Below are positions 20,328 to 54,440 of a stretch of 64,000 nt of DNA, piece by piece. The notes below the pieces were generated by a model. The model made no database searches. It saw nothing but the letters and a program-made list of their open reading frames with translations, and was not told where the DNA came from. A program made the position numbers and the translations under genes. The DNA comes from a virus (lineage: Duplodnaviria > Heunggongvirae > Uroviricota > Caudoviricetes): IMG/VR virus record IMGVR_UViG_3300042691_014730, positions 20,856 to 84,855 of that record; one strand, 5' to 3'. The stretch's first letter is position 1. Every line of letters starts with the position of its first letter.

Positions 20328-22259
20328 ATGAAAATATTAGGTGATGTAATTGAAAGATTAATGAAGTCTGGAGCAAGTGCTGATGAAGCAATTGAAGCAG
20401 TTGCTAAACAATCTGGAAAATCAACAGATGAAGTGGCAGAAGCATTAAAAAGTACTTCAGATATTGCACCTCAAGTCCCAATTGGAAGTGGTAAAAACTT
20501 AAAAGCTTTACAAGAAGCAAGAGTTGGTGCTCCTGATGTTTCAGACATTGATTCTTATCCTAAAAATATAACACAAGATGAACTAGCTAATCCAGGTCCT
20601 TTTAAACTAGAAGGTGCTCCTCAATCTAAAGATTTTACAATGCCTGATCCTGAAGCTGGATTACCTGTACCAAGTTCTGGAAATATGCCACAACCTTCTA
20701 AACTAGATTTAGGATATAATAAAGCCCCTGATGAATATAGTAAATTAGGTACTAGTAATATAGATGTTGTAGATTATCAAGGTCCTCTTAGACCTTCTTC
20801 TGGCATTACAGAAGGATTTGATACAGATATGACTAAAAGAATCTCTGATCAAGTTGGTCCTATTAAATTCGATGAAAACCCATTAAAAAAGTTTATGCCA
20901 GCTGCAACAGCTGTAGCTGCAGGAGCTACTTTATATAATATGTCTGGAGATGGTGATTCTAAACAAAATATTACTTCTCCTAAACAACCAATTGAAAAAC
21001 AAAAAGATACACAAGCTCCTGTTGTTACTGAAGATAAAAAAGAAGATGCTTTACAAAATAAATCTATTAAACAAAAATTAATTGGAAGTAAAGTGACACC
21101 GATCACTGGAGAAAATAAAGAACAAGTATCTGCTGAACAAACTAAACCTGAACCTCAATCTCCTGAAGAAAAAACAATAGACAAATACTTAAAAATGATG
21201 GATGAGGCTGAACAGAAGCGACAAGACAATGAGTTTATAAATGCAATGTATCGTGCTGGGATTATGGCTGGTTCAGCAATAGCTGGAGTAAAAGCTGATT
21301 ATTCTCTAGTGGATGCTTTAGATAAGTTAGCAGATTCAGATGTCAAACGTGTTAAAAACACAATGATGACAGAGGCTGAAGTTCAAAAATTAAAGCAAGC
21401 TAGAAAAATGGAAATTCTAGAAGAGAAGGCTAATGATCCAAATAATCCAATTGCAGTAAAGGCTACAATGATGATGAGGAATCATATTCCAGGATTTCCA
21501 GAAGGTCATTCTATTGCTGAAATAGAGAAATTAACAGGATTAAAAGTTGCAACTATCTTAGGTTATGATGAAAATGAGAAAGCAAGAAAAGAGGCTGCTT
21601 CTGAAAGAAAAGAATTAAAACAATTAGAAATTGAATTACAACAGAAAGAAAAAGAAAAAAGATTAGATGAGAGACAACGTAAGTATGTTTCTGATTTAAG
21701 AAAAGAAACTAGAACTGGTGAATTAGGTAAAAAGTATAGAGAATTCACTAAACTAAATATAATAGTTAAAGCTTTGACTGATTTTTCTAAAGACCCAAGT
21801 GGTTATAGTGATTACGCTACTTTAATGGGAAGTTTAAAAGCTTTACAGGGTGATGAATCAGTAGTTAAAGAAGCAGAAATTCGACTAGGTATGGATGCTA
21901 CATCTTATTTTAATAAGTTAATGAACTCTGTTGAGAAATTTAGAACAGGAAAATCTTTGCAACCTTCTCAAAGAGAAGATATAATTAAAGCAGTAGATAA
22001 ATTGAGTTCTTTAAATCGTAATAGTTACTTAGAAGCAATTCAACCTATATTAATAAATGCTGAACAGGAAGGAATCGATAAAAGTTTAATTATTCCTCCA
22101 GATGTTGCTCTTGCTTTAGAATCTCAATCATATAAAAAGAATGATGTCGAAGATAAATCACCTTCTGTTAAAAAAAGTAAAGTTGGACAACAAGTTAAAA
22201 TTAGAGGAAAACTTTATAAGATAATTAACGAAAATGGTGATCTTGAGGAAGTTAAATAA
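20328..22259 (+). CDS. putative internal virion or ejection protein
   Basis: 643 aa. Late-motif box upstream. Pro/charged N-terminal half and coiled-coil C-terminal half. Confidence 0.4.
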   Translation: MKILGDVIERLMKSGASADEAIEAVAKQSGKSTDEVAEALKSTSDIAPQVPIGSGKNLKALQEARVGAPDVSDIDSYPKNITQDELANPGPFKLEGAPQSKDFTMPDPEAGLPVPSSGNMPQPSKLDLGYNKAPDEYSKLGTSNIDVVDYQGPLRPSSGITEGFDTDMTKRISDQVGPIKFDENPLKKFMPAATAVAAGATLYNMSGDGDSKQNITSPKQPIEKQKDTQAPVVTEDKKEDALQNKSIKQKLIGSKVTPITGENKEQVSAEQTKPEPQSPEEKTIDKYLKMMDEAEQKRQDNEFINAMYRAGIMAGSAIAGVKADYSLVDALDKLADSDVKRVKNTMMTEAEVQKLKQARKMEILEEKANDPNNPIAVKATMMMRNHIPGFPEGHSIAEIEKLTGLKVATILGYDENEKARKEAASERKELKQLEIELQQKEKEKRLDERQRKYVSDLRKETRTGELGKKYREFTKLNIIVKALTDFSKDPSGYSDYATLMGSLKALQGDESVVKEAEIRLGMDATSYFNKLMNSVEKFRTGKSLQPSQREDIIKAVDKLSSLNRNSYLEAIQPILINAEQEGIDKSLIIPPDVALALESQSYKKNDVEDKSPSVKKSKVGQQVKIRGKLYKIINENGDLEEVK

Positions 22260-41543: not shown

Positions 41544-42755
41544 TTAATGAAAGTCAGTATTATCTTTATCCAAATAAGCCTCAGAAATCCATTTTAATGA
41601 CTTTCTAGAGTTAGGACAAGATGGGTTATTATAATCTACTACAGATTTAATCACAATACCTTCTCGTATCTTTTGTGACGGACAATATACTGAATCACCT
41701 TTAGTAAGTTCGTACGCTTGTTCTTTATTAAAAGGTCCAGAGTATAAAGTAGGAACGATATCAAATCCTCGTTCTTTAGCGTACTCTTGTACCTCTAGTG
41801 GGTTTAACCATCTAGTAGAACCGTCTTCATTTAAAATCTTTACATCAAATAATACGAAGTGATGTTCGTTTTTAAATCCGTAATCATAGTTCTTTTGAAT
41901 GCCATGACCTATTAACTCTCCAAATATAGTTTCGTTTGGTTTAATCTTTTCATTAGCTTTTACTTTTTTAAAAACAGCACCGTAAACATCTTCTCCATAG
42001 AATCCAGTATATCCAACTCTGTTGGTTAATTCAACGTTATTAGAACCATAACAAAATTCGTATTTAGGTAATAGTCCTAGTGTATTCTTAATCGATCTTA
42101 AAAACATATTAAGACATGACAACAGAATACTTTTTCTTTCATTAGGTCTAGTTTTTAATAGTTTTAAAGCTGATAGTATTTCCTTAATAGAAGGAACTAC
42201 AGTAGGTAAGTAAGAACAACGTGCGTTACTACCATGTAACTTCTCTTGTATTACTACAATCTCACCTTCTTCGAATAAGTTAGGGAACCATTTAATGTTC
42301 TCAAGTCCGTTGAACTTATGGAACAATGGATTCTCTAGTGGTTTATTTCTAGAAGTCTTTACTGAAACAGAAAACGATGGAGCAGGAGGTTCATACTTAA
42401 CTATTCCTAGTTTCTCTGAAACGTCGTCTTCTTCGTTAATGTTTGATATATTAATTAAGTCTTTAACTTCGTCTAAGTTAATTAACATTCCCTGAGAAGG
42501 GAAGTTTCTGATTCGTATTTGTTTAACTCTGGACTTATGTAGTTTGATTTTACTTCCTTCTGGGAAGAGTTTAGACTCTAGTGAAGGAGGTAGAACTGAA
42601 TCAATAGGAACGTATAATACTGAGTCTCCTACTTTATACTTGTCTTTCTGAATAACTACTTGGAAACCATAAACTGTCGCTACCTCTAGTTTCTCCGCAT
42701 TAAAGTGAGGAGTGATGTTAATGATTTTAGTTAAAGGTACTTTAAATAGTGACAT
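41544..42755 (-). CDS. Rnl2-like RNA ligase (nucleotidyltransferase superfamily)
   Basis: Motif I EKLHGSN resembles Rnl2 KIHGTN. GGAGGG RBS. Gene has its own promoter. Confidence 0.5.
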   Translation of the reverse strand: MSLFKVPLTKIINITPHFNAEKLEVATVYGFQVVIQKDKYKVGDSVLYVPIDSVLPPSLESKLFPEGSKIKLHKSRVKQIRIRNFPSQGMLINLDEVKDLINISNINEEDDVSEKLGIVKYEPPAPSFSVSVKTSRNKPLENPLFHKFNGLENIKWFPNLFEEGEIVVIQEKLHGSNARCSYLPTVVPSIKEILSALKLLKTRPNERKSILLSCLNMFLRSIKNTLGLLPKYEFCYGSNNVELTNRVGYTGFYGEDVYGAVFKKVKANEKIKPNETIFGELIGHGIQKNYDYGFKNEHHFVLFDVKILNEDGSTRWLNPLEVQEYAKERGFDIVPTLYSGPFNKEQAYELTKGDSVYCPSQKIREGIVIKSVVDYNNPSCPNSRKSLKWISEAYLDKDNTDFH

Positions 42756-42866
42756 ATCCCTCCAGATATAAAAGAGTCAGGTAGCTAATCAGATACTGTC
42801 CGAAATGACTTTACTAGCATTTTGGTTCGAATCCATAACTAACAGTCGTGACCTGAACTCTAATTG

Positions 42867-42896
42867 ACTATATCACGTTTTAACGATTTTGTCAAG
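42867..42896 (-). promoter_or_regulatory. sigma70-like promoter TTGACA-N18-TATAGT
   Basis: Reverse complement reads TTGACAaaatcgttaaaacgtgaTATAGT. Confidence 0.6.
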
Positions 42897-42923
42897 CATT
42901 ATTTTTATCTAGTAAGTGTTATA

Positions 42924-43340
42924 TTAAAAATTTATGCTAATTGCATGTGAAGTTATTCCAAGCGATATAATATTTTCTAGTTTAAGCTCATAATTTTCAT
43001 TTTTATATAATGACATTTTAAAATTAGCCCCTAACACTGGTGTTATACCATAAACAGATGGAGGCATAATGTCCAATTCTTTAAATTCTTTAAAATTTGT
43101 ATTATATCCACCAAACACAAAATCAACATCGTCAGTAATTTTGGTAGATGTTACGGCACCAGTTATTTCACCGCACGCTGAGTCTCTACCTTTTAAAATT
43201 CCTGCTTTAAATTCTTCATCGCCGACCATACCTATAACGTATTCGTTGTGAATAGTTCCGTAATTATTGACAGTATTACAATAAGGCAAGCTGGGTGCAA
43301 GATAATGATTAGTTATACCGCCATAAATTATAGTTATCAT
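42924..43340 (-). CDS. hypothetical protein
   Basis: 138 aa. Confidence 0.3.
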   Translation of the reverse strand: MITIIYGGITNHYLAPSLPYCNTVNNYGTIHNEYVIGMVGDEEFKAGILKGRDSACGEITGAVTSTKITDDVDFVFGGYNTNFKEFKELDIMPPSVYGITPVLGANFKMSLYKNENYELKLENIISLGITSHAISINF

Positions 43341-43816
43341 ACTTTAATATAAACTACTATTTCGTTTTCACCAATAACTTCATTTATAATCTTTTCAATA
43401 ATATTCCAATCTCCACCACCTAACCCTGCTCCGATCTTAGGAATAGCTACTGTCTTACCACGATCTAAATATTTCTCTTTAAGTTTAATAAAGCAATCTT
43501 GTATTGCTTCATAGTCAACATACTGTTTTCCATCATACCCATAATTCTCTTGTGTGAAACAGTTTACTATTGTACGGTTTGGTGCTACTTTAATCGGTTG
43601 TATCATTCCTAATAATATTCCTTCTCCAAATCCCATTGACTTATAGTGTTCACATAATCCGTGATAACTACCTTTCACGATTGGATATCTTTCAGTTATT
43701 GTTTTAGCTAATCCTGAGCCAAACTTACTCTGACAGTTTACTCCATGAGCTATAATCTCACAGTCTGTATTAAATAGATCACCTTGTACGTATTTCAACA
43801 TAATCATAACCTCCAA
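43337..43816 (-). CDS. macro domain protein (ADP-ribose binding or processing)
   Basis: VQGDLFNTDCEIIAHGVNCQSKFGSGLAKTI and IPKIGAGLGGGDW match the macro domain GDIT / hhVNAAN / GxGGV and PxIGxGxxGG motifs. Confidence 0.65.
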   Translation of the reverse strand: MEVMIMLKYVQGDLFNTDCEIIAHGVNCQSKFGSGLAKTITERYPIVKGSYHGLCEHYKSMGFGEGILLGMIQPIKVAPNRTIVNCFTQENYGYDGKQYVDYEAIQDCFIKLKEKYLDRGKTVAIPKIGAGLGGGDWNIIEKIINEVIGENEIVVYIKV

Positions 43817-43961
43817 AACTATTTTCTACTTGTTTTAATTGAAATCCAAACCTAGTTAATATTTCTGCTAGTGGTTGAGATGGATTGTATATCCTTCCAT
43901 TCTGGATACTAGCATATAATAGCTCTAGTACTTCTTCCTTTGTAATTTGTTCTGTTTTCAT
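43779..43961 (-). CDS. hypothetical protein
   Basis: 60 aa. Confidence 0.3.
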   Translation of the reverse strand: MKTEQITKEEVLELLYASIQNGRIYNPSQPLAEILTRFGFQLKQVENSFGGYDYVEIRTR

Positions 43962-44854
43962 TAAAAATCTCCATAATTGACTTGCAGTGTTCTTATATTT
44001 TTATTTCTAAGCATCTTTACTACTTGATCTCTGTCATCTAGTGCGAACTTAATATTGTATTTAGGTAAGATTTCATAATCTAGCAGTATACTCTTCACTA
44101 AATCGTCTCTTCTAAAATCTCCTCTGCTTCTCATTACTAATTCATCAAAGGGTATGTTATTATTTTGTAACCAAGTAGTTGTTAATGTTCTATAATCATC
44201 TGGTCTTCCAGAACAAAGTACTATTTTAGTTCCTTTTTCTTTATAAGTTCTCAGTATATCAACGATATCCTCATAAACCAAGTCATTTATCATATCGTCA
44301 AAGAATCCTTTCCAGTTTTTCTTACCTTCACCGTGTACATGATGTAATCTTTGATCTATATTAGCGATTGTACCGTCGATATCACAGTATATTGCATCTG
44401 GTTTGACTTTTTCGCTGTATTTCTCCGTTAAAACGTTGTCTGCTTCGTCCTCAGTAATGTATTCATACTTACTGAAGAACGTGTTTAAAGCGTTTATGGC
44501 GTGTTTAGACGATGTTATCGTAGGATGGTTTAACCTACATTTCATTCTACTGAAACAAACGCTTAAAGGAACAATAATGTTGTGAATACTTGTAGTATAA
44601 CCTAGTTCTTTTGCTGGCTTTAGGTATCGTTCACGTTGTTGTTTACTAAAATTCATTCGGTCTACTACAATATCGTCTTGTCGTTCTAAAGCTTCTTTAA
44701 ATAATTTTAAATGACCTTCCTTGCCTTGATCGTCTTGCGATATTCTAGTATATCCTATGTAACTTTTACTAAGAGATGACTTACCTGATCCAGGAGGTCC
44801 AACTAATAACACTATGTTTTTCATTCCTTGTCCTCCCATTCTATTAGAAAACAA
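43961..44854 (-). CDS. pnk: polynucleotide kinase / 3'-phosphatase (T4 Pnk-like)
   Basis: N-terminal P-loop LLVGPPGSGKSSL. C-terminal HAD phosphatase motif IYCDIDGTIA (DxDGT). Confidence 0.65.
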   Translation of the reverse strand: MFSNRMGGQGMKNIVLLVGPPGSGKSSLSKSYIGYTRISQDDQGKEGHLKLFKEALERQDDIVVDRMNFSKQQRERYLKPAKELGYTTSIHNIIVPLSVCFSRMKCRLNHPTITSSKHAINALNTFFSKYEYITEDEADNVLTEKYSEKVKPDAIYCDIDGTIANIDQRLHHVHGEGKKNWKGFFDDMINDLVYEDIVDILRTYKEKGTKIVLCSGRPDDYRTLTTTWLQNNNIPFDELVMRSRGDFRRDDLVKSILLDYEILPKYNIKFALDDRDQVVKMLRNKNIRTLQVNYGDF

Positions 44855-45183
44855 GTCTTTTCTTTTGCTGTTTTTATAATTTTTTTAAGTGATGTAAATT
44901 GTATCTTATCTAAAACACTACACACTACAAATAAAACAGCTCCAACTAAACAAATAAATATAACTATCATTCCAAATTGAGAATGGGTTTTATAATATGA
45001 ATCTTCTGGGTAAGAGATAAATAACGTACCTATTGCTAAAAAAACACAAATTAATGAAAATAATGTATGAAGTGAAATAACAAACGTCATAACAGTTAAT
45101 ATTATTAATTGACATGTATTATTCGGTTCACATTGTGTCCAAAATTTTATAAACTTATATAACAAACCTTTTTTTAATCTCAT
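44821..45183 (-). CDS. membrane protein
   Basis: 120 aa with three or four hydrophobic helices. Confidence 0.35.
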   Translation of the reverse strand: MRLKKGLLYKFIKFWTQCEPNNTCQLIILTVMTFVISLHTLFSLICVFLAIGTLFISYPEDSYYKTHSQFGMIVIFICLVGAVLFVVCSVLDKIQFTSLKKIIKTAKEKTCFLIEWEDKE

Positions 45184-45380
45184 TTTCGTCCTTCTATGTG
45201 TTTTACAATAACATCAATTATATCATCCGTTAGAATCATTAGGAAAAATAGAAACGAAACTATGTTCATCAAAGGATAGAAAGAATATTTATATAATTCA
45301 GTCTGATTAAAGTAATTTGCAGCTAATAACGTTCCTAGCATTGGAAATACGTATATAAGAATAAAGAAGTTTACAATCAT
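45180..45380 (-). CDS. small membrane protein
   Basis: 66 aa. Confidence 0.3.
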   Translation of the reverse strand: MIVNFFILIYVFPMLGTLLAANYFNQTELYKYSFYPLMNIVSFLFFLMILTDDIIDVIVKHIEGRK

Positions 45381-45541
45381 CGTTTGCCCTTATACTTAGG
45401 TTTAGATTTACGTTTAGCACGTCTTCTGTTTTCACCGTCGTGCATAGGACAAAAAGAACACTTACCAGTCTCGTTACAAATTTTATTTCGACGAAGTTTT
45501 TTGTATTCTTGTGAATTATTCGTTTCGTCAATTCTTTTCAT
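45378..45541 (-). CDS. 54-aa basic zinc-ribbon protein, not in ORF track
   Basis: ATG 45541. Product MKRIDETNNSQEYKKLRRNKICNETGKCSFCPMHDGENRRRAKRKSKPKYKGKR. ATGA-coupled to the downstream gene. Preferred over the overlapping TTG-start ORF 45307..45531. Confidence 0.35.
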
Positions 45542-45830
45542 ACTTCGCCTTCAATTTCTCTAATAAAGCACGTTCTTTCTTTTCTTTTTCAGAAGAACGT
45601 TTTAATTTATCTTTTAGAACTTTTGTTTCAAGTTTAATTCGTTTATTGTACTCTGAATCAGTCTCATCTCTATGATATGCAATATATAATTCATCATACT
45701 CAAATCCTATATACAAATTATTAGATGTTTCATTTAATTCATAAATAGCATCTATTTCTTCTTTTAATTGATCTAAACTGATAGCACTAGAGTTAAGATA
45801 CATAAATTCGTGTATTTTCTTTTTACTCAT
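45528..45830 (-). CDS. hypothetical protein
   Basis: 100 aa. Confidence 0.3.
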   Translation of the reverse strand: MSKKKIHEFMYLNSSAISLDQLKEEIDAIYELNETSNNLYIGFEYDELYIAYHRDETDSEYNKRIKLETKVLKDKLKRSSEKEKKERALLEKLKAKYEKN

Positions 45831-45839
45831 AATATCTCT

Positions 45840-46061
45840 TTAGTTAGCATAAATTAAAGAAAATAAATTTTGAACTTCATCTTTTCCTAGAGTTTTATTA
45901 AGTACTTCTCTACAAATTAAAAAATCCTCTGATAACATGAAAGCATCTTCTCCTTTATGTAATTTTAAAAAAGCAGTGCAGTAGTCTAGTGCGTCAGTAA
46001 CAGATGCCTCTCCTTTTAAAGGAGGTTTTGTGTCTCTTTGAACTTCTACTGAAATTTTCAT
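45840..46061 (-). CDS. hypothetical protein (start moved to ATG 46061)
   Basis: AAGGA RBS before MKISVEVQRD. The tabled start at 46118 lies inside the terminator hairpin. Confidence 0.35.
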   Translation of the reverse strand: MKISVEVQRDTKPPLKGEASVTDALDYCTAFLKLHKGEDAFMLSEDFLICREVLNKTLGKDEVQNLFSLIYAN

Positions 46062-46077
46062 GTTATTCCTTTTGTTA

Positions 46078-46385
46078 AAAAAAAAGCGATAGCTCGCCAC
46101 CCTAACAACTTGTACCATAGTGTGTTACTCTATCGCACTCTTTCAACGTTACTACCGTTTAACAGATGATACGTTCTGTAGTGAGGTGAACTTTACTCTA
46201 AGCTATAACTTTGTGTAGGTAATTAAACGAAAGTATCTTCCGCCCCTTCCAACCCATAATTCGCTTAGACCAACGTTTCATAAACTACCGTAGTTCACTG
46301 CTGGGGAATTACTTTGCCTTCTAGTCAAGCTCATTTAAAGACGAAGTGTTTATCATGCTCCACCTTGACTTGGACTCACTGAGGT
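46078..46385 (-). ncRNA. candidate structured RNA (about 300 nt), GC-rich, bracketed by promoter P7 and a hairpin/U8 terminator
   Basis: No ORF. GC content is clearly above that of the flanks. Promoter at 46387-46416. The - strand reads GCGATAG-N37-CTATCGC followed by UUUUUUUU. Internal direct repeat CAACGTT...ACTACCGT occurs twice. Confidence 0.3.
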
Positions 46386-46386
46386 T

Positions 46387-46416
46387 ACTATATCATATTT
46401 TAAGAAATTTGTCAAG
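46387..46416 (-). promoter_or_regulatory. sigma70-like promoter TTGACA-N18-TATAGT
   Basis: Reverse complement reads ccTTGACAaatttcttaaaatatgaTATAGTaa. Confidence 0.6.
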
Positions 46417-47193
46417 GGATTTTTTTGTAATGTCGTAGATCGGAGGATCATACTTTGCACGAGAATAGTATCTTAGTGCAGAAATAACTCCGTTGTCTCC
46501 TTCTTCAAAATAATCCTTGAAAGAACGATGGAAAAGAAAATAGAAACTAAACCCAAGTTTACTAAAAAGGGTTTCTTTGGTTAGCTTTGTTTGAATTAAA
46601 GCTGAAACCTGATGAAATACTGTTGAAGTTTGAAAATATTTAGTATGAGATTTTAAAACATGAACTATTAAATGTAGAAGCCAGAAAAAATCCAACAAAT
46701 ATAGAAACAGAACTAAACTCTTCTTCTGAAATAACGCACGATATATAATAGACCATGTACTTAATCCACAAAAGTCTGGTAAAAACTTACGTTTACCTTT
46801 AGTAGTGTGGGTGTTTTGAAAAAAGCTACCACGTTTTAGTATATCTAGTGCGATTTTCTTAACTCTATTCGTTTCACCCATAAACCCAGCTAGGATTATG
46901 TAACCTATACTGTTATCTCTAGACACAGTTCTAGGGTCTGTCCACAGTCTACCCTCTTCTGAGTCTTGTATTGAGTGATAACGACGTATTTTACCGTTAG
47001 TAAAGAAGCGATATAGAGCTAGAATTGCTGTTGTCGTACATTTATTACCGTTCACCCATTCATTGTCTTCAGAAGCTAGTTTTTGGTACAAAGCGTTTGT
47101 TGTTAGAAAGTTAGAATCTACAGCATTAAAATGATCTGGTGTCTTTTGTACAAGAAATGTGTAATCATCTATGAATCTTTCTAACTTTTTCAT
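46393..47193 (-). CDS. hypothetical protein
   Basis: 266 aa. Confidence 0.35.
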   Translation of the reverse strand: MKKLERFIDDYTFLVQKTPDHFNAVDSNFLTTNALYQKLASEDNEWVNGNKCTTTAILALYRFFTNGKIRRYHSIQDSEEGRLWTDPRTVSRDNSIGYIILAGFMGETNRVKKIALDILKRGSFFQNTHTTKGKRKFLPDFCGLSTWSIIYRALFQKKSLVLFLYLLDFFWLLHLIVHVLKSHTKYFQTSTVFHQVSALIQTKLTKETLFSKLGFSFYFLFHRSFKDYFEEGDNGVISALRYYSRAKYDPPIYDITKKSLDKFLKI

Positions 47194-47204
47194 TTATTCT
47201 CCTA

Positions 47205-48827
47205 TTATAAACCACATACTCCACCAACACACTCTGTCATATTTTCTTCAAATATAACTCCTTCATTAGCTAGTGCTTCTTCTAGAGAAACTCTAGTTAA
47301 AGGCTGACCTCCTCGGCATCCGTCTGGATAACAAGTAAATCCTCTTAGTCTCTTTGCGTATTTTAAAAGTATCTTTGCTTTTTCTTCTAACGTTGACTCG
47401 TTATTATTTTCAGTTCCCCACGATGGAATATTACATGTTGAACTTATCGCCATGTCAACATAATTCTGTACGTCTGCTTGGAACTTAACTCTTGTTTTAA
47501 AATCTAAATCATATGAATCTTGTATATCTTCAATTTTAACTCCTTGTTCTAGAAGTCTTTTAACTGATCCATCTATAACATATTGTGATAGCCATTTTCC
47601 TTCTTTGAAATATCTTCTTTTGTATGCTTTGCAAAATAAAGGTTCAATACCTGTTGTTGTTTCAGCAATAATGCCAATAGTTCCAGTTGGTGCTATTGCT
47701 CTTACTCCTTTCGGTACAGATACTCCTAATTGTTTAGCACATACAAAAGCTTCTGAATTTGATTCGTCTTCATATACTGAAAGCCATCTATGTAATTCAG
47801 GAGTTACTTCGTATTTCATTCCTCTAGACATTAACCATTCGTGTATTCCACCTAATCCCAATCCAATTCTATTATTACGATTACCAACTTCTTTAATCTG
47901 TGCATTAGGAACATCCGAATAAAGTCCCCCGCATAATAAAAATTTGGTCGCATACTTTGTGACTTTTCTAAGTTCTTTAGTATCTTTTATTCTATTGATC
48001 CAGATAGTTCCCAAATTACATTTATCGCTATCATCTTCACTAACTACTTCAGTACAAGCATTACGTAGTGTTTCGTTGTCTTTTCTAAAGTTAAATGAAA
48101 ATCCGGGTTCAGCAGTACTGAATGCTTGTTTACAATTTAATAAATAAACTTCCCAAGCACGTTGGTGTAGTGGGTGTGATTCGTTTTCAATTGCAATAAA
48201 AAATTCAGTGTCGTAATTTACTGAAATATTTGTTAGTTCCATATCTAACTGGAAATTAAAATCTTTTTCTTTTTGCAATCTTAATTCTTCTGAATGATTT
48301 TTCATTAAAAGAAATTTATCTATGTCTTGATGTTTCCAATTCAATGACGCATAAATAGCAGATCTTCTCTGACCACCCTGCATAATATTTCTTCCTGCTT
48401 CATTTACCATTCTCATTAATGCTAATGGTCCAGTACTGAAACCACCAGTGCGTTTTACTAAAGCACCCTCTGGTCTAAGAGCAGAGTAATCTACTCCTAT
48501 TCCACCACCAGTCATAAGAGCAGATGTTATTTTATACATTAACTCTGCCCATTCTTCCCTACTATCTCCTGCTCTAAATAAAAAACAGTTATTAACTTGG
48601 TGAAAAGGTCTTCCTGCTGAATAAAGGTATCTCCCTCCTGGAATAAATTTTCTTTCATAAATTATTTTAAATATATTTTCTTTATCTTCTGGACTTAGAT
48701 ACTGACCACACACTGACATTGTGACACGTCTTGCTGTCTCTTCCCATGTTTCTTGACCATTTAATGAATATTTTTGTAAGTAAACGTCTTGACTAAACTT
48801 ATTTGAAAATACATCAAACTTTGACAT
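47205..48827 (-). CDS. ribonucleotide reductase, class II-like
   Basis: GGGIGVDYSALRPEG glycine-rich motif, VNNCF active-site cysteine loop, C-terminal cysteine pair CVGGVCGL. Start uncertain (48827 or 48869). Confidence 0.55.
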   Translation of the reverse strand: MSKFDVFSNKFSQDVYLQKYSLNGQETWEETARRVTMSVCGQYLSPEDKENIFKIIYERKFIPGGRYLYSAGRPFHQVNNCFLFRAGDSREEWAELMYKITSALMTGGGIGVDYSALRPEGALVKRTGGFSTGPLALMRMVNEAGRNIMQGGQRRSAIYASLNWKHQDIDKFLLMKNHSEELRLQKEKDFNFQLDMELTNISVNYDTEFFIAIENESHPLHQRAWEVYLLNCKQAFSTAEPGFSFNFRKDNETLRNACTEVVSEDDSDKCNLGTIWINRIKDTKELRKVTKYATKFLLCGGLYSDVPNAQIKEVGNRNNRIGLGLGGIHEWLMSRGMKYEVTPELHRWLSVYEDESNSEAFVCAKQLGVSVPKGVRAIAPTGTIGIIAETTTGIEPLFCKAYKRRYFKEGKWLSQYVIDGSVKRLLEQGVKIEDIQDSYDLDFKTRVKFQADVQNYVDMAISSTCNIPSWGTENNNESTLEEKAKILLKYAKRLRGFTCYPDGCRGGQPLTRVSLEEALANEGVIFEENMTECVGGVCGL

Positions 48828-48894
48828 TGTAAACCTTTTAATTGAAAAAGGGAAGTGAATTCTTCCCATTAAAGAGTTGTTTACTGATTAAACG

Positions 48895-50391
48895 TTAAGC
48901 TGAAATTTTTTGCTCTTTTAATGTTTTTCGTATATTAGACAAAGTATCGTTGAATAAAAAGTTACCATTAATAAAAATAGGTTTCAACAAATCTTCTTTA
49001 GTGTTAGTTAGTGTTGTATCATCTGAGTATTCTAAAATCCCTTGATCATTTTTAAACACTTTTACTTTACCCTTAGCCGAGTTCTTGGTTCCATCATCTG
49101 TTTTAGGTGCTTTAAATATAGCCTTTTCTGTTCCATTAATTGTAACAGATGTTGCCTTCATTGCAAATCCTAATGTATCTCTAGTGATGTATTGATAAGT
49201 ATAAGAACCAATTCCTAGTACAACGTTAGTTGAAGCGAATCCTTTTTGTTTTAATCTTTCACAAATTTCCTTGCATCTAGTAATTGTGATTGAATCTCCG
49301 TAGATAGCTCCTACTTTTGGATTTAGTAGTTTGAATCCTTGCGGCGTTACTGATCCTCCGAATGTTTCGTAAAGTAATTCAATAACACCTTTGCTCTCAG
49401 ATGAACCAGGTTTAGCTTCAGGGTCACCACAAAGAATATTTACTGGATCACCGCTATCTGGTCGGATAACTACTTTATCTAAAGAGCCTTCTCCTCCGTT
49501 ACGAGCAAGGATAGATTCTTTTAATGAAGGAATAATATTTGTCATTACATTCCATAAATCCCATGTATCTGAAACAATAGATACAATTCCTGTTGGATAT
49601 AAGTCTTCAATAAATCTTCTATATGTTTCTCTTTCATCTTCATATCCTCCAGCACACATACAACTGTGTTCTGAAGCGGGAACCGAGCATCCTACTAGTT
49701 CTTTAGTAACGTCTGCGCCATAATACTGTTCAGCGTATGAGATGGCTGGTAATGTGTCAGTTCCTACAAACGAAAGTAAATGACCTACTCCTGATCTAGC
49801 TGAATCTTCTGGACCACTTTGACCTCTCATAGAAAAGTCGTGTCCTTGGAATTCTACTCCTGCTGTAGAGCCTGTTGTTTGTAAAGCATAATCATCTAAT
49901 ATACTTCTGTATGTGTGAGCAATGCTTGCCGTTGTAGAAGGCTTCCATAGTAGGGAAGATAGAATCGTTTCAAGATAATTAGTTACCCAAAAGAATTCAG
50001 GCTTTGTGTTTTCGATAGTCATCATTGGAACACGATATGGTACTAGAGTACCTTCCTTCAGAGACTTAACTTCAATAGGTAGAAATCCCAAATCGTGTAA
50101 ATCTTCAATGTGTTTTGTTTCAACGTTCGGATTAAATAAATAAGCACTTACTTGTCTTTTGTACTCAATAATTACTTCTTCTTTTGAACGATTGAAGAAC
50201 TGTTTATTAAACAAATCATTAACTTCTTTTAATGCCCCTTGAATACCAAAACAAACTACGTTCTTAATTTCTGGAGCATGCTTTCCAGATCGAGGAATCC
50301 ATGTACTGTAAACGTTTGTAGTGCCTTTTGGGTACTGAATTCTGTGACTAAGTTTATATCCATCAGCTGCTAATGTTGCAATTAAATTCAT
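48895..50391 (-). CDS. nadV: nicotinamide phosphoribosyltransferase (NadV-type NAMPT)
   Basis: N-terminal LAADGYKLSHRIQYP resembles the NAMPT DSYKxxH signature. About 500 aa. Own consensus promoter. Confidence 0.65.
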   Translation of the reverse strand: MNLIATLAADGYKLSHRIQYPKGTTNVYSTWIPRSGKHAPEIKNVVCFGIQGALKEVNDLFNKQFFNRSKEEVIIEYKRQVSAYLFNPNVETKHIEDLHDLGFLPIEVKSLKEGTLVPYRVPMMTIENTKPEFFWVTNYLETILSSLLWKPSTTASIAHTYRSILDDYALQTTGSTAGVEFQGHDFSMRGQSGPEDSARSGVGHLLSFVGTDTLPAISYAEQYYGADVTKELVGCSVPASEHSCMCAGGYEDERETYRRFIEDLYPTGIVSIVSDTWDLWNVMTNIIPSLKESILARNGGEGSLDKVVIRPDSGDPVNILCGDPEAKPGSSESKGVIELLYETFGGSVTPQGFKLLNPKVGAIYGDSITITRCKEICERLKQKGFASTNVVLGIGSYTYQYITRDTLGFAMKATSVTINGTEKAIFKAPKTDDGTKNSAKGKVKVFKNDQGILEYSDDTTLTNTKEDLLKPIFINGNFLFNDTLSNIRKTLKEQKISA

Positions 50392-50417
50392 ATTTATATT
50401 CCCTTTGTTTTATAATT

Positions 50418-50446
50418 ACTATATCATACTTTTGTCATTTAGTCAA
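50418..50446 (-). promoter_or_regulatory. sigma70-like promoter TTGACT-N17-TATAGT
   Basis: + strand reads actatatcatacttttgtcatttagtcaa; the reverse complement gives the -35 and -10. Confidence 0.6.
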
Positions 50447-50638
50447 GTCTTTTCCGAAGATTTTTTTGTTCATTTTTTGTATAAATGGAATACCGAAAGC
50501 AACGATAGCACATAGTACATGTATTGTAATAGCTAATGTTCTAAAATCATTTTGGCTGATAGGTGCAAATATTAATAAACACCCAAAGAAAAATACACTA
50601 GATGCTATTGTAATTCCTAGTTTTAAATCACTTAACAT
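50435..50638 (-). CDS. small two-TM membrane protein
   Basis: 67 aa. Confidence 0.35.
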   Translation of the reverse strand: MLSDLKLGITIASSVFFFGCLLIFAPISQNDFRTLAITIHVLCAIVAFGIPFIQKMNKKIFGKDLTK

Positions 50639-50868
50639 TTAAACTCCTTAGTAATAGTTTTCCTAAGTGTAATATTACAGCCAATAAAGTAAGTCCTCCT
50701 AGAATTGGAAGTTCATTTGAACGATGACTAAATAGGTATGGTAGTAAAAAACCAAAGTAAACAATTGCTGAAGCAATGATAATAAATAACTTAATAATAA
50801 CTCCTTTGTTAATAACGGCGACAGCTCGCCACTCTCACCACTTAAGCGGGGGTGACCCTGCACAGTAC

Positions 50869-51723
50869 TTATTTAATATTAATAAACGGAATAGCGTTGC
50901 TTCCTGTCATGGTCGGTAACTTACCATCCCATCTTTGGATGGCTTCATATTGAATAAGTTCAGATGTTAATGTTTTTAACTTTAAAGCGTTTGATTTAGA
51001 CTCAGCTTCAGCAATAGCGATCATTGATTTAGCTCTACCTTCTGCTTCAGCGATTTGTTTCTTAGCTTCTGCCTCTGCTTCTCTTAACTCATTCTCTCTT
51101 TGTTGAGCACGTTGTGTAGCTTCGATCTTAGAGTTCAACGCATTAACTACGTTGCTAGGTAATCGAATAGAACCGATTAAATAAACCTTTTCAATTAAGA
51201 TTCCGTTACTCTTTAAGTTAGTTCTTACAATCTCTTCTACCTTAGAAAATAACTCTGCTTTACCTGATCCATATACTGATTCAACATTCATCGTAGAAGC
51301 TACAGTATTTAGAGCGTCTCTAATAGCATTCTTTACTACAATAGATTTAATCTCATCAATGCCCTTTCTATACTTTTGAAATAACTTACTAATTTTTTCA
51401 GCGTCAACACTAAAAGTTACACCAACGTCAATGTTACAAGAAAGACCTTCTTGTGTTTGAAATGTAAAAGATTCATCTGTTTCCGAATCCTCTTGTTCAT
51501 CAGCTGTATATACTTTTGTTTGTTGAAAAGTAGGGAAGATGTATAGTTCTTCATTAATACCAATGAAGTATCTACCTACTCCAAGTACTTCGTGATCTAC
51601 CCCTTTGTCTTTTCCTAGTAAATAAATCTTGACTCCGACGTTTCCTGCTGGAACTTTAGAACATGATGTTGTTAGTGTTACTCCTAACAGAATAACAAAA
51701 GCTAACGTAATAAATCTAATCAT
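50869..51723 (-). CDS. SPFH (band 7 / stomatin-prohibitin-like) lipoprotein
   Basis: Lipobox LTTSCSK. Ala/Glu-rich EAEAEAKKQIAEAEGRAKS...IQRWDGKLP segment typical of SPFH or HflK/C. Confidence 0.6.
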   Translation of the reverse strand: MIRFITLAFVILLGVTLTTSCSKVPAGNVGVKIYLLGKDKGVDHEVLGVGRYFIGINEELYIFPTFQQTKVYTADEQEDSETDESFTFQTQEGLSCNIDVGVTFSVDAEKISKLFQKYRKGIDEIKSIVVKNAIRDALNTVASTMNVESVYGSGKAELFSKVEEIVRTNLKSNGILIEKVYLIGSIRLPSNVVNALNSKIEATQRAQQRENELREAEAEAKKQIAEAEGRAKSMIAIAEAESKSNALKLKTLTSELIQYEAIQRWDGKLPTMTGSNAIPFINIK

Positions 51724-52477
51724 TAATTTCTCCTTTATAAGTAAAGATTCGGTTAATACCTGAATCTCTTAATGTTTGAATACCTTTAGTAAATAATCCA
51801 TGTGATACATACAAATCAACATTCGATACTTTGTGTTTATTTAATAATTGTTCAGCGACTAATTTAAATGTTCCTCCTCCATCACATAAGTCGTCAACAA
51901 TTAAACATCTCTTATTTGTTAAATCTTCTTTGGATAATAAATCCATTCCAATAATGTTACCAGTTAATTGATCTCTTGTTTTTTCGAAATAGACTTTAGT
52001 ATGGTTTGGTAAATAGTATCTTAAACTTGCTCCTTTGTCTGGGTATACTATAATATCTGCATCTGTTTTAATGAACGTGTGTTTTATTATTTCGTTAGGC
52101 AATACATTCACAAACCTTTTTATACCGTGGTTATTTGAATGTACATCTACACTCGATACTTTATTAAAGTTAAAAGAATTAATTATGTTAGAGAAAGCTT
52201 GAAGACCAAACGTTGTATTATTACTAACCTCTTTATCTTGTCTGGCATAAGGTAAATAAGGAATAAACAGTTCACCTCGTTTTTCTTCAATACTACCGAT
52301 CAATAATCGTAACTGACAAACGTTTATTAATTCCGCTTCGTTTTCAAACTGCCATCTTATTTCGTTATAATATGAGTTTCTGATTTTAGAATAGACTTCA
52401 TCTGGAAGTTTCCATACTTGACTACATTTATCTGGGAACATAGTTGGTTTGACTAGGTATCCATTAATATATATCAT
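51716..52477 (-). CDS. phosphoribosyltransferase-domain protein, probably PRPP synthetase-like
   Basis: PRPP-binding loop CLIVDDLCDGGGTF. Directly upstream of SPFH and two genes from NAMPT. Exact family uncertain. Confidence 0.45.
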   Translation of the reverse strand: MIYINGYLVKPTMFPDKCSQVWKLPDEVYSKIRNSYYNEIRWQFENEAELINVCQLRLLIGSIEEKRGELFIPYLPYARQDKEVSNNTTFGLQAFSNIINSFNFNKVSSVDVHSNNHGIKRFVNVLPNEIIKHTFIKTDADIIVYPDKGASLRYYLPNHTKVYFEKTRDQLTGNIIGMDLLSKEDLTNKRCLIVDDLCDGGGTFKLVAEQLLNKHKVSNVDLYVSHGLFTKGIQTLRDSGINRIFTYKGEIND

Positions 52478-52478
52478 A

Positions 52479-52721
52479 TTATTCTCCGTATGTTACTTCA
52501 TCAATAACTTCCTCGATAGCAGATGTTTCAGCCGTAGTTGGTTCTCCACTATAAAATTTTTTAAGCTCCTCTAATGAATCAAGTAAAGCTGGGATAGGTA
52601 CAGCAAACTTATGTCCTTCATGTTCTAATATAACTCCGTCCTTATTTCCTTTTAATATTCGAACCGATGCCTCGATTCCTTTTTCACTTGTTTGAATGTA
52701 TATAACTAATTCTTTTCTCAT
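52479..52721 (-). CDS. hypothetical protein
   Basis: 80 aa. Confidence 0.3.
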   Translation of the reverse strand: MRKELVIYIQTSEKGIEASVRILKGNKDGVILEHEGHKFAVPIPALLDSLEELKKFYSGEPTTAETSAIEEVIDEVTYGE

Positions 52722-52722
52722 A

Positions 52723-53094
52723 CTAACTCCTTTCGAGTATTCGAGTTTTGTTTATATTAATAGCGTCTTCAGTAGGTTTATAATCATTATTGAATTCCAT
52801 GGGGAATTGACAGAAGATACTACTATCTCTAAAGCTAGGATTATATCCTCTTCTTAACATTTCAGAAACTAATTGTTCGTATCTGTTTTTTAGATAAATC
52901 ATTTTATCATAAAAGAATTTTACATGTCCTTTACCTAGAGTGTACTCATTGGGTATTTCAGTTAAACTAAAAGGAGATGTTAATCTATTCAATGACTTCT
53001 TAAGATTATTTGGAAGTCTAGTTATTTCTCTATACTCAGCTATAAGGTGTTTAGTACTAAGAGTTTCGACTGGAACAACGTTTATTCTAGTCAT
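52723..53094 (-). CDS. denV: pyrimidine dimer DNA glycosylase / AP lyase (T4 endonuclease V-like)
   Basis: MTRINVVPVETLSTKHLIAEYREI and GKGHVKFFYDKMIYLKNRYEQLVSEMLRRGYNP closely match T4 DenV [24 protein letters not shown] and [33 protein letters not shown]. Start set at MTRIN (53094), because the tabled start lies in the promoter -35. Confidence 0.75.
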   Translation of the reverse strand: MTRINVVPVETLSTKHLIAEYREITRLPNNLKKSLNRLTSPFSLTEIPNEYTLGKGHVKFFYDKMIYLKNRYEQLVSEMLRRGYNPSFRDSSIFCQFPMEFNNDYKPTEDAININKTRILERS

Positions 53095-53104
53095 AGACCT
53101 CCTT

Positions 53105-53133
53105 ATTATATCATATATTTTATAATTTGTCAA
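53105..53133 (-). promoter_or_regulatory. perfect sigma70 consensus promoter TTGACA-N17-TATAAT
   Basis: Reverse complement reads gcTTGACAaattataaaatatatgaTATAATaaggaggtctATG. The -10 sits only about 11 nt from the denV ATG. Confidence 0.65.
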
Positions 53134-53204
53134 GCACTATTTTATATCTAAATCCTTGGTTAAGTAAACAAATCCTAAATAACATACTGCCATAACTATA
53201 AATA

Positions 53205-53510
53205 CTAAGGGCATATCTCACCTACTTTGTTTAAGTCTGCTGAATAAAATTTAAGTTCTACTGGAATACTACCCAATGTTTCTAAGCTGTACACTTTAAT
53301 TCCAATATCCATATAGCTATCCTCTATTGATGATATAACACCGATATAACTTAATAGATCTTTATTTATTAATCGTTTTTTAATATAATAGTTTGATATA
53401 TATCGATTGTTATATGCATCGTATGCAGTGTCGTCAATTACTTGTACAATGTCTCCTACTTTAAACATATCCCTCCTTATCTGTTTCTTTCTTACAGCTT
53501 CTACACACAT
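53205..53510 (-). CDS. hypothetical protein
   Basis: 101 aa. Confidence 0.3.
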   Translation of the reverse strand: MCVEAVRKKQIRRDMFKVGDIVQVIDDTAYDAYNNRYISNYYIKKRLINKDLLSYIGVISSIEDSYMDIGIKVYSLETLGSIPVELKFYSADLNKVGEICP

Positions 53511-53862
53511 AGAATGATTTACCGTATGCTGTATTCATAACAATATTTTTATTATTACAACATTGTTTCTTAGAGTTATGTATGTTGTTTATATTTGAAG
53601 TATAGTCAAAGTCTACTAAAGGAAATTCTCCATTAATAAATCCATACAGTTCATCTTTAATTTCAATACAGTCATCGAACATAACGTCAAATGTGTTACC
53701 ATCAAACGGATCGGTAACAGTGAAGTGATGCCAAGGATAAAAATATTCTTTTGCTTCTAATTCATAGAAGTTATTGTTTAACCATTTATTGATTTTAGTA
53801 ATGTCCATTCCTACATTATGTGAATTAGCTGAGGAAATTATTTTGATTTTCTTATAACTCAT
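53461..53862 (-). CDS. Cys-rich protein (zinc ribbon)
   Basis: C-terminal KKQCCNN...CRSCKK. Confidence 0.35.
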   Translation of the reverse strand: MSYKKIKIISSANSHNVGMDITKINKWLNNNFYELEAKEYFYPWHHFTVTDPFDGNTFDVMFDDCIEIKDELYGFINGEFPLVDFDYTSNINNIHNSKKQCCNNKNIVMNTAYGKSFYVCRSCKKETDKEGYV

Positions 53863-53864
53863 AA

Positions 53865-54440
53865 TTATCTCCTTAGTTGATATTCAAATCTTAGTTTATG
53901 TTTCTGTTTAATTACTTTAGCTTTACCTTCTTTTATAAGTTCTTGAAACTTAATTGCAGCTTTAGTATATTCTCCGTTCAGTTTAGCATATAGTTGTCTT
54001 ATGTGTACTTTCTTTCCATCGTCCAACAATAGTACTCTAGGATTAGGAGTTTTTTCTGCTCCAGTAAATACGAAGTTACTGGCTTTATATATTGTTCCAT
54101 TGTGTCCGACATTAGGATCGGTGTACGATAATACATACGGAGGAGTATCTAGTTCTTTAAGAAGTCTTAATGTCTTCCCTAAGAAGAAAGACTCTGTATT
54201 CTTTTGTGTATTATCTATTAAACAGAAGCGTCTTAATTCTATATACTTATCATTATCAACATTAGTACCCATTGGTTGTCCGTATATTGCAACACCGACT
54301 AGAGTGTTATCGTGTGTTCTTAACGTAAAGACGTGCTTTTGTTTTAGCGATCTATATGATTTAGAATAGTGCCATTGAACAATGAAGTCCATGATCTCCA
54401 CACTTAAAGCTTCCTCTTCAACTTTATATATATCTTTCAT
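53865..54440 (-). CDS. hypothetical protein
   Basis: 191 aa. Confidence 0.35.
   Translation of the reverse strand: MKDIYKVEEEALSVEIMDFIVQWHYSKSYRSLKQKHVFTLRTHDNTLVGVAIYGQPMGTNVDNDKYIELRRFCLIDNTQKNTESFFLGKTLRLLKELDTPPYVLSYTDPNVGHNGTIYKASNFVFTGAEKTPNPRVLLLDDGKKVHIRQLYAKLNGEYTKAAIKFQELIKEGKAKVIKQKHKLRFEYQLRR

Follow-up and report, generated by a model that had tools for sequence, protein, structure and literature searches.

A non-coding stretch of about 300 nucleotides (nt) on the minus strand of a Caudoviricetes genome is probably the source of a small RNA or a gate for the genes that lie behind it. The stretch belongs to the IMG/VR record IMGVR_UViG_3300042691_014730, of which positions 20,856 to 84,855 (64,000 nt, referred to here as the window) were analysed; it is found between the gene of a 266-amino-acid (aa) protein and that of a 73-aa ORFan protein, and the coordinates of all features are collected in Table 1. 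The original prediction, made from the letters of the sequence, described a promoter-to-terminator non-coding unit located ahead of the ribosome-binding site of the next gene, and on sequence evidence this description is borne out. Our preferred interpretation, which we put forward tentatively, is that the stretch is a lineage-specific terminated leader, which may double as a discrete RNA of about 300 nt and may throttle the read-through to the downstream gene cluster. We infer that the RNA is produced and that its transcription terminates at a tract of nine U residues (U9).

The promoter anticipated just upstream of the stretch is indeed present, with its limits refined to 46415-46387. It consists of a TTGACA box (46415-46410), a 17-nt spacer and an extended -10 box TG-n-TATAGT (46395-46387; n = A), and the TGA stop codon (46395-46393) of the upstream 266-aa gene sits inside this -10 box. 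Exact matches to TTGACA-N16-18-TATAGT are found five times in the window, all of them on the minus strand, against 0.04 expected; when one or two mismatches are allowed, the family grows to about nine near-identical members, again all on the minus strand, with the consensus TTGAC(A/T)AA...AAAA..TG.TATA(G/A/C)T. The promoter call is solid because of these five exact matches and the family of about nine members. Family promoters are named here by the first base of their -35 box, the promoter of the studied stretch being P46415. Most of them are followed by a leader of 15-25 nt and then by a small open reading frame (ORF).

Concerning the region behind the promoter, the gap between the two flanking genes (46062-46392, 331 nt) is the largest non-coding gap of the window, in a very compact genome where the next one measures 192 nt. 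Several stop codons are present in each of the six frames across the roughly 300 nt, which agrees with the earlier claim that no ORF is present; the longest ORFs reach 27-35 aa and lack convincing ribosome-binding sites. A search for a coding frame with homologs also ended without one: the six-frame translations gave no match in Pfam at E<=10, and tblastx detected no similarity between the stretch and either the relatives or the remainder of the window. A decayed gene was rejected on these two empty searches. The GC content of the gap is 39.6%, compared with 31.9% for the window (97th percentile of 331-nt windows), and exceeds that of every other intergenic gap (23-34%); the GC-richness noted in the original prediction therefore holds among the intergenic gaps but is not unique, as coding stretches reach 43%. 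Such a raised GC content is the opposite of what is expected for a neutral, AT-rich spacer. The transcript would be G-rich (24% G vs 17% C) directly downstream of a strong promoter, with its predicted first base at A46380 or G46379 and its predicted 3' end at the end of the U tract.

The stretch ends in an element that resembles an intrinsic terminator. Its arms, GCGATAG (46136-46130) and CTATCGC (46092-46086), are separated by 37 nt, and no T run on either strand of the window is longer than the one that follows (46085-46077); the terminator hairpin proposed earlier is thus present before the ribosome-binding site of the next gene, with a run of nine T residues and not eight. Of all T runs in the window, this one alone has a stable hairpin directly next to it (-13.6 kcal/mol over the last 60 nt), and the element is the best terminator candidate in the window. 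The form picked by the terminator scan is a nested alternative hairpin of 5 bp (GGCGA/UCGCU). The Shine-Dalgarno (SD) sequence AAGGA (46071-46067) of the 73-aa gene is located 5 nt past U9 and is followed by the ATG at 46061.

A relaxed scan found no family promoter between 46387 and 42895, and eight genes are located behind the terminator: the ORFs of 73, 100, 54, 66 and 120 aa, PNKP, the DarG-like macrodomain protein and an ORF of 138 aa. Transcripts from P46415 and read-through from upstream would both meet U9 before these eight genes, so that the cluster would be expressed via read-through. In our preferred interpretation, the host sigma-70 RNA polymerase would start at P46415, whose -10 box overlaps the upstream stop codon, and would transcribe about 300 nt that encode no protein; most of the polymerase would stop at the hairpin and U9, 5 nt ahead of the next SD sequence, and a discrete RNA of about 300 nt, with a paired predicted 5' end and the terminator hairpin at its 3' end, would accumulate. 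The eight downstream genes would be reached by read-through alone, with the element acting as an attenuator or gate. The block itself would have been inserted, probably via promoter-mediated module shuffling, which would also be the source of the variability of the slot that it occupies.

Table 1. Coordinates of the studied stretch, its predicted parts and the surrounding features of the window
Feature	Position	Strand	Remarks
Sigma-70-type phage promoter	46387..46415	-	Member of a minus-strand family of about nine; conserved in the relative L001
Promoter family, first bases of the -35 boxes	27005, 30166, 32487, 36390, 38253, 42895, 46415, 50446, 53133	-	Relaxed scan
Predicted non-coding transcript, ~300 nt	46077..46380	-	No ORF, no Pfam match, GC 39.6%; both ends predicted from the sequence
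Insertion-like block, 304 nt	46081..46384	-	Removal leaves TATAGTAATTTTAACAAAAGGA, identical to the P36390 leader
5' hairpin AGUCAAG/CUUGACU, 7 bp, 34 nt between arms	46323..46370	-	Mean pair probability 0.70; encloses AAGGUGGAG and the mini-ORF
Candidate 11-aa mini-ORF MINTSSLNELD	46321..46356	-	ATG at 46356; read off the sequence itself
Direct repeat copy 1, ACGGTAGT-TTATGA-AACGTTG	46271..46291	-	Overlaps the 13-bp palindrome; just 5' of the central long hairpin
Central long hairpin	46197..46269	-	Helix UCUAAGC/GCUUAGA, pair probability 1.0 (partition function)
Direct repeat copy 2, ACGGTAGTAACGTTG	46144..46158	-	Just 5' of the terminator hairpin
Intrinsic-terminator-like element	46077..46136	-	GCGAUAG/CUAUCGC around an internally paired 37-nt segment, then U9
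SD sequence and 73-aa ORFan gene	45840..46071	-	First of eight genes without a family promoter before 42895
266-aa protein gene	46393-47193	-	Family of 36 clusters, homologs P0002-P0037, metagenomes only
RNA ligase 5' leader, 110 nt	42756-42866	-	Between promoter 42895-42867 and gene 41544-42755; homologous to L001:7706-7824
RNA ligase	41544-42755	-	
DarG-like macrodomain protein	43337-43816	-	
PNKP	43961-44854	-	
RNR	47205-48869		
NAMPT	48895-50391	-	Likely counter-defence/repair cluster 41544-54440
Phosphoribosyltransferase	51716-52477	-	
DenV	52723-53133	-	
Mom-like protein	53865-54440	-	

Insertion-like boundaries, repeats and predicted folds

The boundaries of the stretch resemble those of an insertion. 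The window contains exactly two copies of the 14-mer TTTTAACAAAAGGA, one at the studied locus and one directly after the -10 box of P36390, and because it is shared by both places, deletion of 46384-46081 recreates an ordinary promoter-leader cassette: P36390 reads ...TGATATAGTAATTTTAACAAAAGGAcacaaATG, and the studied locus reads ...TGATATAGTAA, the 304 nt of the block and then TTTTAACAAAAGGAataacATG. The block therefore looks like an insertion into a standard promoter-leader cassette, and on this reading the last four U of U9 would belong to the old leader. The closest relative, contig L001 (83% amino acid identity in the 266-aa protein), has the same promoter followed by a short leader and then by a denV gene, similar to T4 endonuclease V. 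Nucleotide synteny between L001 and the window extends from 50633 down to 46390, exactly to the -10 box, and resumes at PNKP (44819). The cargo of the slot between these points is unrelated in the two genomes, and in the window it comprises the RNA block and the ORFs of 73, 100, 54, 66 and 120 aa. The slot is hypervariable and carries accessory-gene cargo.

Internal repeats are also seen in the stretch. A composite direct repeat, ACGGTAGT-N0/6-AACGTTG, is found at 46144-46158 and 46271-46291 and nowhere else in the window; among 5000 dinucleotide shuffles of the region, 30 contain a composite repeat of this kind (p ~0.006, calculated post hoc), and both copies sit just 5' of a long predicted hairpin. 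The direct repeat reported earlier is thus real, apart from the end of copy 1, which lies at 46291 and not at 46292. There is also a perfect 13-bp palindrome, AACTACGGTAGTT, at 46283-46295. Tandem Repeats Finder (TRF) gave no tandem repeats or iterons at score >= 30, and only two short dispersed repeats, 127-133 nt apart, are present.

Based on a partition-function fold, which is a prediction from a single sequence, the transcript would consist of a closing 5' helix (AGUGAG/CUCACU), the 5' hairpin, the central hairpin and the terminator. The central hairpin is the best-defined helix of this single-sequence prediction, and its G-rich tip helix GGGCGGAAG-AUA-CUUUCGUUU (46245-46225) has a predicted pair probability of 0.95. 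Concerning the pairing AGTCAAG/CTTGACT (46364-46370 and 46323-46329), both segments are present as claimed, but they form a local hairpin with 34 nt between its arms and not a long-range pairing. An exact identity of 21 nt was also observed between the G-rich tip (GGGTTGGAAGGGGCGGAAG) and the sequence of the conserved GLEGAED motif of an asparagine-synthetase gene in an IMG/VR viral contig (L003:8745-8802); this identity, which at first looked like a gene relic, was judged to be a chance match, as it came from an 18-mer picked from a huge collection, nhmmer gave E values of 0.03-0.2 and Pfam was blind to it.

Conservation and rival explanations

A number of results weigh against our preferred interpretation, and the first of them concern the fold. 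The minimum free energy of the 321-nt transcript is -75.8 kcal/mol, compared with -73.6 +/- 4.5 kcal/mol for shuffled sequences (z = -0.49), 120-nt sliding windows on the transcribed strand give z values of -1.85 to +1.44, and perfect 7-bp inverted repeats number five, vs 3.7 +/- 2.5 in shuffles, which is the chance rate. Rfam 15, run over the whole window at gathering score, gave no match. The 37-nt loop of the terminator is atypical, and part of the U tract may be old leader, in which case termination could be a by-product of the insertion. RNAduplex detected no target above background among 94 phage translation-initiation regions, 72% of shuffled RNAs scoring equally well. The element is absent after the 266-aa gene in all six of the loci of this gene family that were fetched (83, 64, 49, 41, 41 and 38% identity), none of which has a comparable gap; nhmmer gave no trace of the RNA in the fetched loci, the largest run covering 1.38 Mb, and seven k-mer scans, of which five used 15-18-mers on IMG/VR, one a 20-mer on JGI metagenomes and one a 19-mer on GTDB genomes, brought back nothing but coincidences in coding sequences and the identical contigs described below. 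The flanking genes, finally, are ORFans, which give no functional linkage to read.

Taken together with the Rfam result, these folding statistics do not uphold the label of a structured RNA given in the original prediction, which rests on stems that chance supplies. Relaxing Rfam to E<=10 over 45900-46600 gave noise of 11.7-16.6 bits vs cut-offs of 34-60, and the covariance-model check thus matched no family at either setting. ARAGORN found no tRNA or tmRNA in the window, and 46077-46385 stayed empty even at 70% of the default thresholds. Membership of a known RNA family was rejected, as neither Rfam at its two settings nor ARAGORN, whether its thresholds were default or relaxed, gave a match. 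An antisense target in trans was rejected as well, as the RNA does no better than shuffled RNAs across the 94 initiation regions. A group I or II intron was rejected despite P/R-like strings: the elements are in the wrong order, the boundaries lack a final G and Rfam is silent, and no gene is split, the 266-aa ORF ending where its homologs end.

The phage occurs in lakes (JGI 3300032116; ENA ERZ27248021 and ERZ27247995), and the region is carried by four metagenome contigs (two ENA assemblies and one JGI sample), which show 100% identity across the 400 nt compared and, overall, no more than one difference from the window in 4.3 kb. As all copies found are identical, they carry no information on covariation. 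In effect, and in a weak form, the conservation and covariation in related genomes that would accompany the predicted structure are missing: the fetched relatives are without the element and its copies are 100% identical. Based on the sequences collected, the element is so far confined to a single clonal population of the phage, and it is at best an orphan phage small RNA or a terminated leader. Contig L016 (ENA ERZ27247995 k141_778024; L016:1-545 against window 46522) is 100% identical to the window from 46522 downstream; the shared part starts within the 266-aa gene, of which it holds the final 42 codons, and goes on through the promoter and the RNA to the ORFans. Upstream of the match the frame continues into an unrelated collagen-repeat ORF, and L016 is either a chimera of the assembly or a natural recombinant in which the cassette sits in other surroundings.

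A serious rival, which we consider somewhat unlikely, is a non-functional recombination scar: a fragment of decayed or foreign DNA, which may have brought its own terminator, would have been dropped between the promoter cassette and the leader as modules were shuffled, and would be transcribed with no role. The insertion-like boundary, the absence of the block from all fetched relatives, the failure of the scans to find homologs anywhere, the lack of a structural signal and a slot filled with ORFans are all points in its favour. The GC content can be read in both directions, being off the phage average, which fits a foreign origin, and at the same time raised, which a scar fits poorly. In a genome as tight as this one, with a next gap of 192 nt, 300 nt of junk ahead of eight genes should be costly and quickly deleted; neither Pfam nor tblastx traced a former coding frame, and the composite repeat is improbable by chance (p ~0.006).

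Micro-peptides encoded in the stretch, either as leader peptides or as small effectors, are an improbable explanation. The candidates are the 11-aa MINTSSLNELD, preceded by the SD-like sequence AAGGUGGAG (region 46321-46366) and with its stop codon inside the 3' arm of the 5' hairpin, and a basic 27-aa ORF at 46198-46281, which appears in the ORF listing. The spacing between the SD-like sequence and the AUG of the former is poor, however, the latter has no SD sequence, and ORFs of these sizes are expected by chance in 300 nt. MINTSSLNELD could be a leader peptide or a coincidence.

A further possibility, also improbable, is a role in counter-defence: carried as a self-contained cassette of promoter, RNA and terminator, the RNA of about 300 nt would serve as a sponge, a decoy or an antitoxin mimic against RNA-targeting or RNA-sensing immunity of the host. 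The cassette sits among genes for NAMPT, a phosphoribosyltransferase, the DarG-like macrodomain protein, PNKP and RNA ligase, and the two ACGGUAGU..AACGUUG motifs, each located before a long hairpin, would be the putative binding sites.

We regard as very improbable an element acting at the DNA level, either as an operator for a dimeric protein (the palindrome AACTACGGTAGTT and a half-site) or as an R-loop origin as in T4 ori(uvsY) or ColE1 RNA II. The perfect 13-bp palindrome with its repeated half-site and the G-rich transcript (24% G vs 17% C) right after a strong promoter would suit such roles; the sites, however, at 85-235 nt past the promoter, do not have the geometry of an operator, the region is richer in GC and does not resemble an AT-rich unwinding element, it has no iterons or tandem repeats, and an origin would be expected in close relatives, whereas L001 lacks it at the same position. 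For the origin-like or protein-binding element of the original prediction, nothing positive was found beyond this one palindrome. Least probable of all is a ligand- or tRNA-sensing leader (riboswitch or T-box) that would gate the 73-aa gene via terminator and antiterminator folds: the layout of promoter, long leader, terminator and ribosome-binding site is suitable, the terminator 3' arm has two alternative 5' partners and an AGGGUGG near the terminator has a surface resemblance to a T-box, but there is no Rfam match even at E<=10 and no known aptamer, every alternative pairing found still ends at the U tract, the regulated gene is an ORFan without a metabolic link, and there is no thermodynamic or comparative support. 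In the list of inverted repeats, the alternative partners are all for the 3' arm and none sequesters the 5' arm GCGAUAG, and the riboswitch suggested at the outset, for which neither a known aptamer nor an antiterminator alternative was found, is unlikely.

Should the RNA of our preferred interpretation be made and be functional, it would be an accessory module that works at the level of RNA, in a part of the phage genome given over to RNA repair and probably to counter-defence. Promoter cassettes would then be seen to shuffle non-coding cargo in addition to ORFans.

Neighbouring genes and the RNA ligase leader

The neighbourhood of the stretch is rich in nucleotide-metabolism, RNA-repair and likely counter-defence functions (Table 1). 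The 266-aa protein has a hydrophobic segment and no match in Pfam, PHROG or PADLOC; its distant relatives are found in other neighbourhoods, for example near ClpP-like and RNase H-like genes. On the other side of the stretch, the AlphaFold 2 model of the 73-aa ORFan is a three-helix bundle (pLDDT 75) with no match in the PDB by fold or by sequence. Neither the 73-aa nor the 100-aa product matches Pfam or PADLOC, and neither protein has relatives among 5.8 billion clusters. In the PHROG scan nothing matched the 73-aa product, whereas the 100-aa product matched two families of unknown function.

A stronger RNA candidate in the window, suggested by a comparison of two sequences, is the 5' leader of the RNA ligase gene. 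This leader is better supported because it is conserved in L001 with compensatory changes, unlike the 300-nt element, for which conservation is nil. A core of about 45 nt is identical in L001, vs about 72% nucleotide identity in the flanking genes. The outer helix GAGU(U)CAGGU/ACCUGACUC shows a double change from C-G to U-A with the pairing kept, a double change from U-A to A-U is found in a predicted hairpin with the SD sequence in its loop and the AUG in its stem, and three single-sided changes in the helices of the leader also keep the pairing. No match to the leader was found in Rfam. The core contains GGAUUCGAACC, which is the complement of the tRNA T-loop consensus.

Comparison with known systems

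In type III toxin-antitoxin systems (ToxIN, AbiF-type and AvcID, and the pseudo-ToxI of phages) a promoter is followed by a non-coding RNA, a terminator and a gene whose dose is set by read-through. The order of the elements is the same in the studied stretch, and both share carriage on a mobile element or phage in a defence or counter-defence context (PMC12373285, PMC10511110). In contrast to these systems, the stretch has no tandem repeats of 34-45 nt, based on TRF and a repeat search, and the 73-aa protein gave no match to ToxN, AbiF or any other model of PADLOC or Pfam. A type III system was rejected on both of its defining features, the tandem repeats and the downstream endoribonuclease toxin (ToxN, AbiF, CptN or TenpN).

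Regulatory and counter-defence small RNAs of phages (reviewed in PMC12197685; RNA anti-CRISPRs, PMC10651486) are likewise short non-coding units with their own promoter and terminator, found among accessory genes. With about 300 nt the predicted RNA would be longer than most of them, and it contains no CRISPR-repeat-like sequence and has no predicted target above the shuffle background.

The PeSL (promoter-early stem-loop) cassettes of T4-type phages contain a stem-loop within or beside a promoter, where upstream transcription stops and a new transcript starts (Arbiol et al. 2010, PMC2839356), and modules are shuffled at these repeated promoter cassettes (PMC2839356; Comeau et al. 2014, PMC4122927). 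Near-consensus sigma-70 promoters that are repeated in variable ORFan regions and act as breakpoints are common to both cases: in the window, repeated consensus promoters border variable ORFan modules, synteny with L001 breaks at 46390, and taking out the 304-nt block restores the cassette of P36390. The arrangement differs in that the terminator is located about 300 nt downstream of the -10 box and would stop the promoter's own transcript, with no qualifying stem-loop at the promoter itself. The phage is also not T4-like, and its lineage is distant from cultured ones: its PolB shares no more than 29% identity with that of any cultured phage in the collection. The position of the breakpoint at the promoter suggests a PeSL-like shuffling of modules in a phage that is not T4-like.

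The leader between PR' and tR' of phage lambda is transcribed as the 194-nt '6S' RNA and is gated by antitermination through Q. The analysis identified neither a Q-like protein nor a qut site or a pause signal; none of the 36 window proteins scanned against Pfam showed an antiterminator domain, a search in which small phage antiterminators are not reliably recognisable and to which the 20 kb of the genome outside the window do not contribute. The cargo also differs, consisting of accessory ORFans and PNKP and not of late genes, and the element is missing from the closest relative, so that it does not belong to the core regulation of its own lineage. The likeness concerns the layout: a strong promoter, a non-coding leader of a few hundred nt and an intrinsic terminator are placed before genes that have no family promoter and would need read-through, and the leader, which accumulates as a small RNA in lambda, is predicted to do so here. 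By analogy, and with no claim of membership, the PR'-tR' unit of lambda is the closest working analogue of the stretch.

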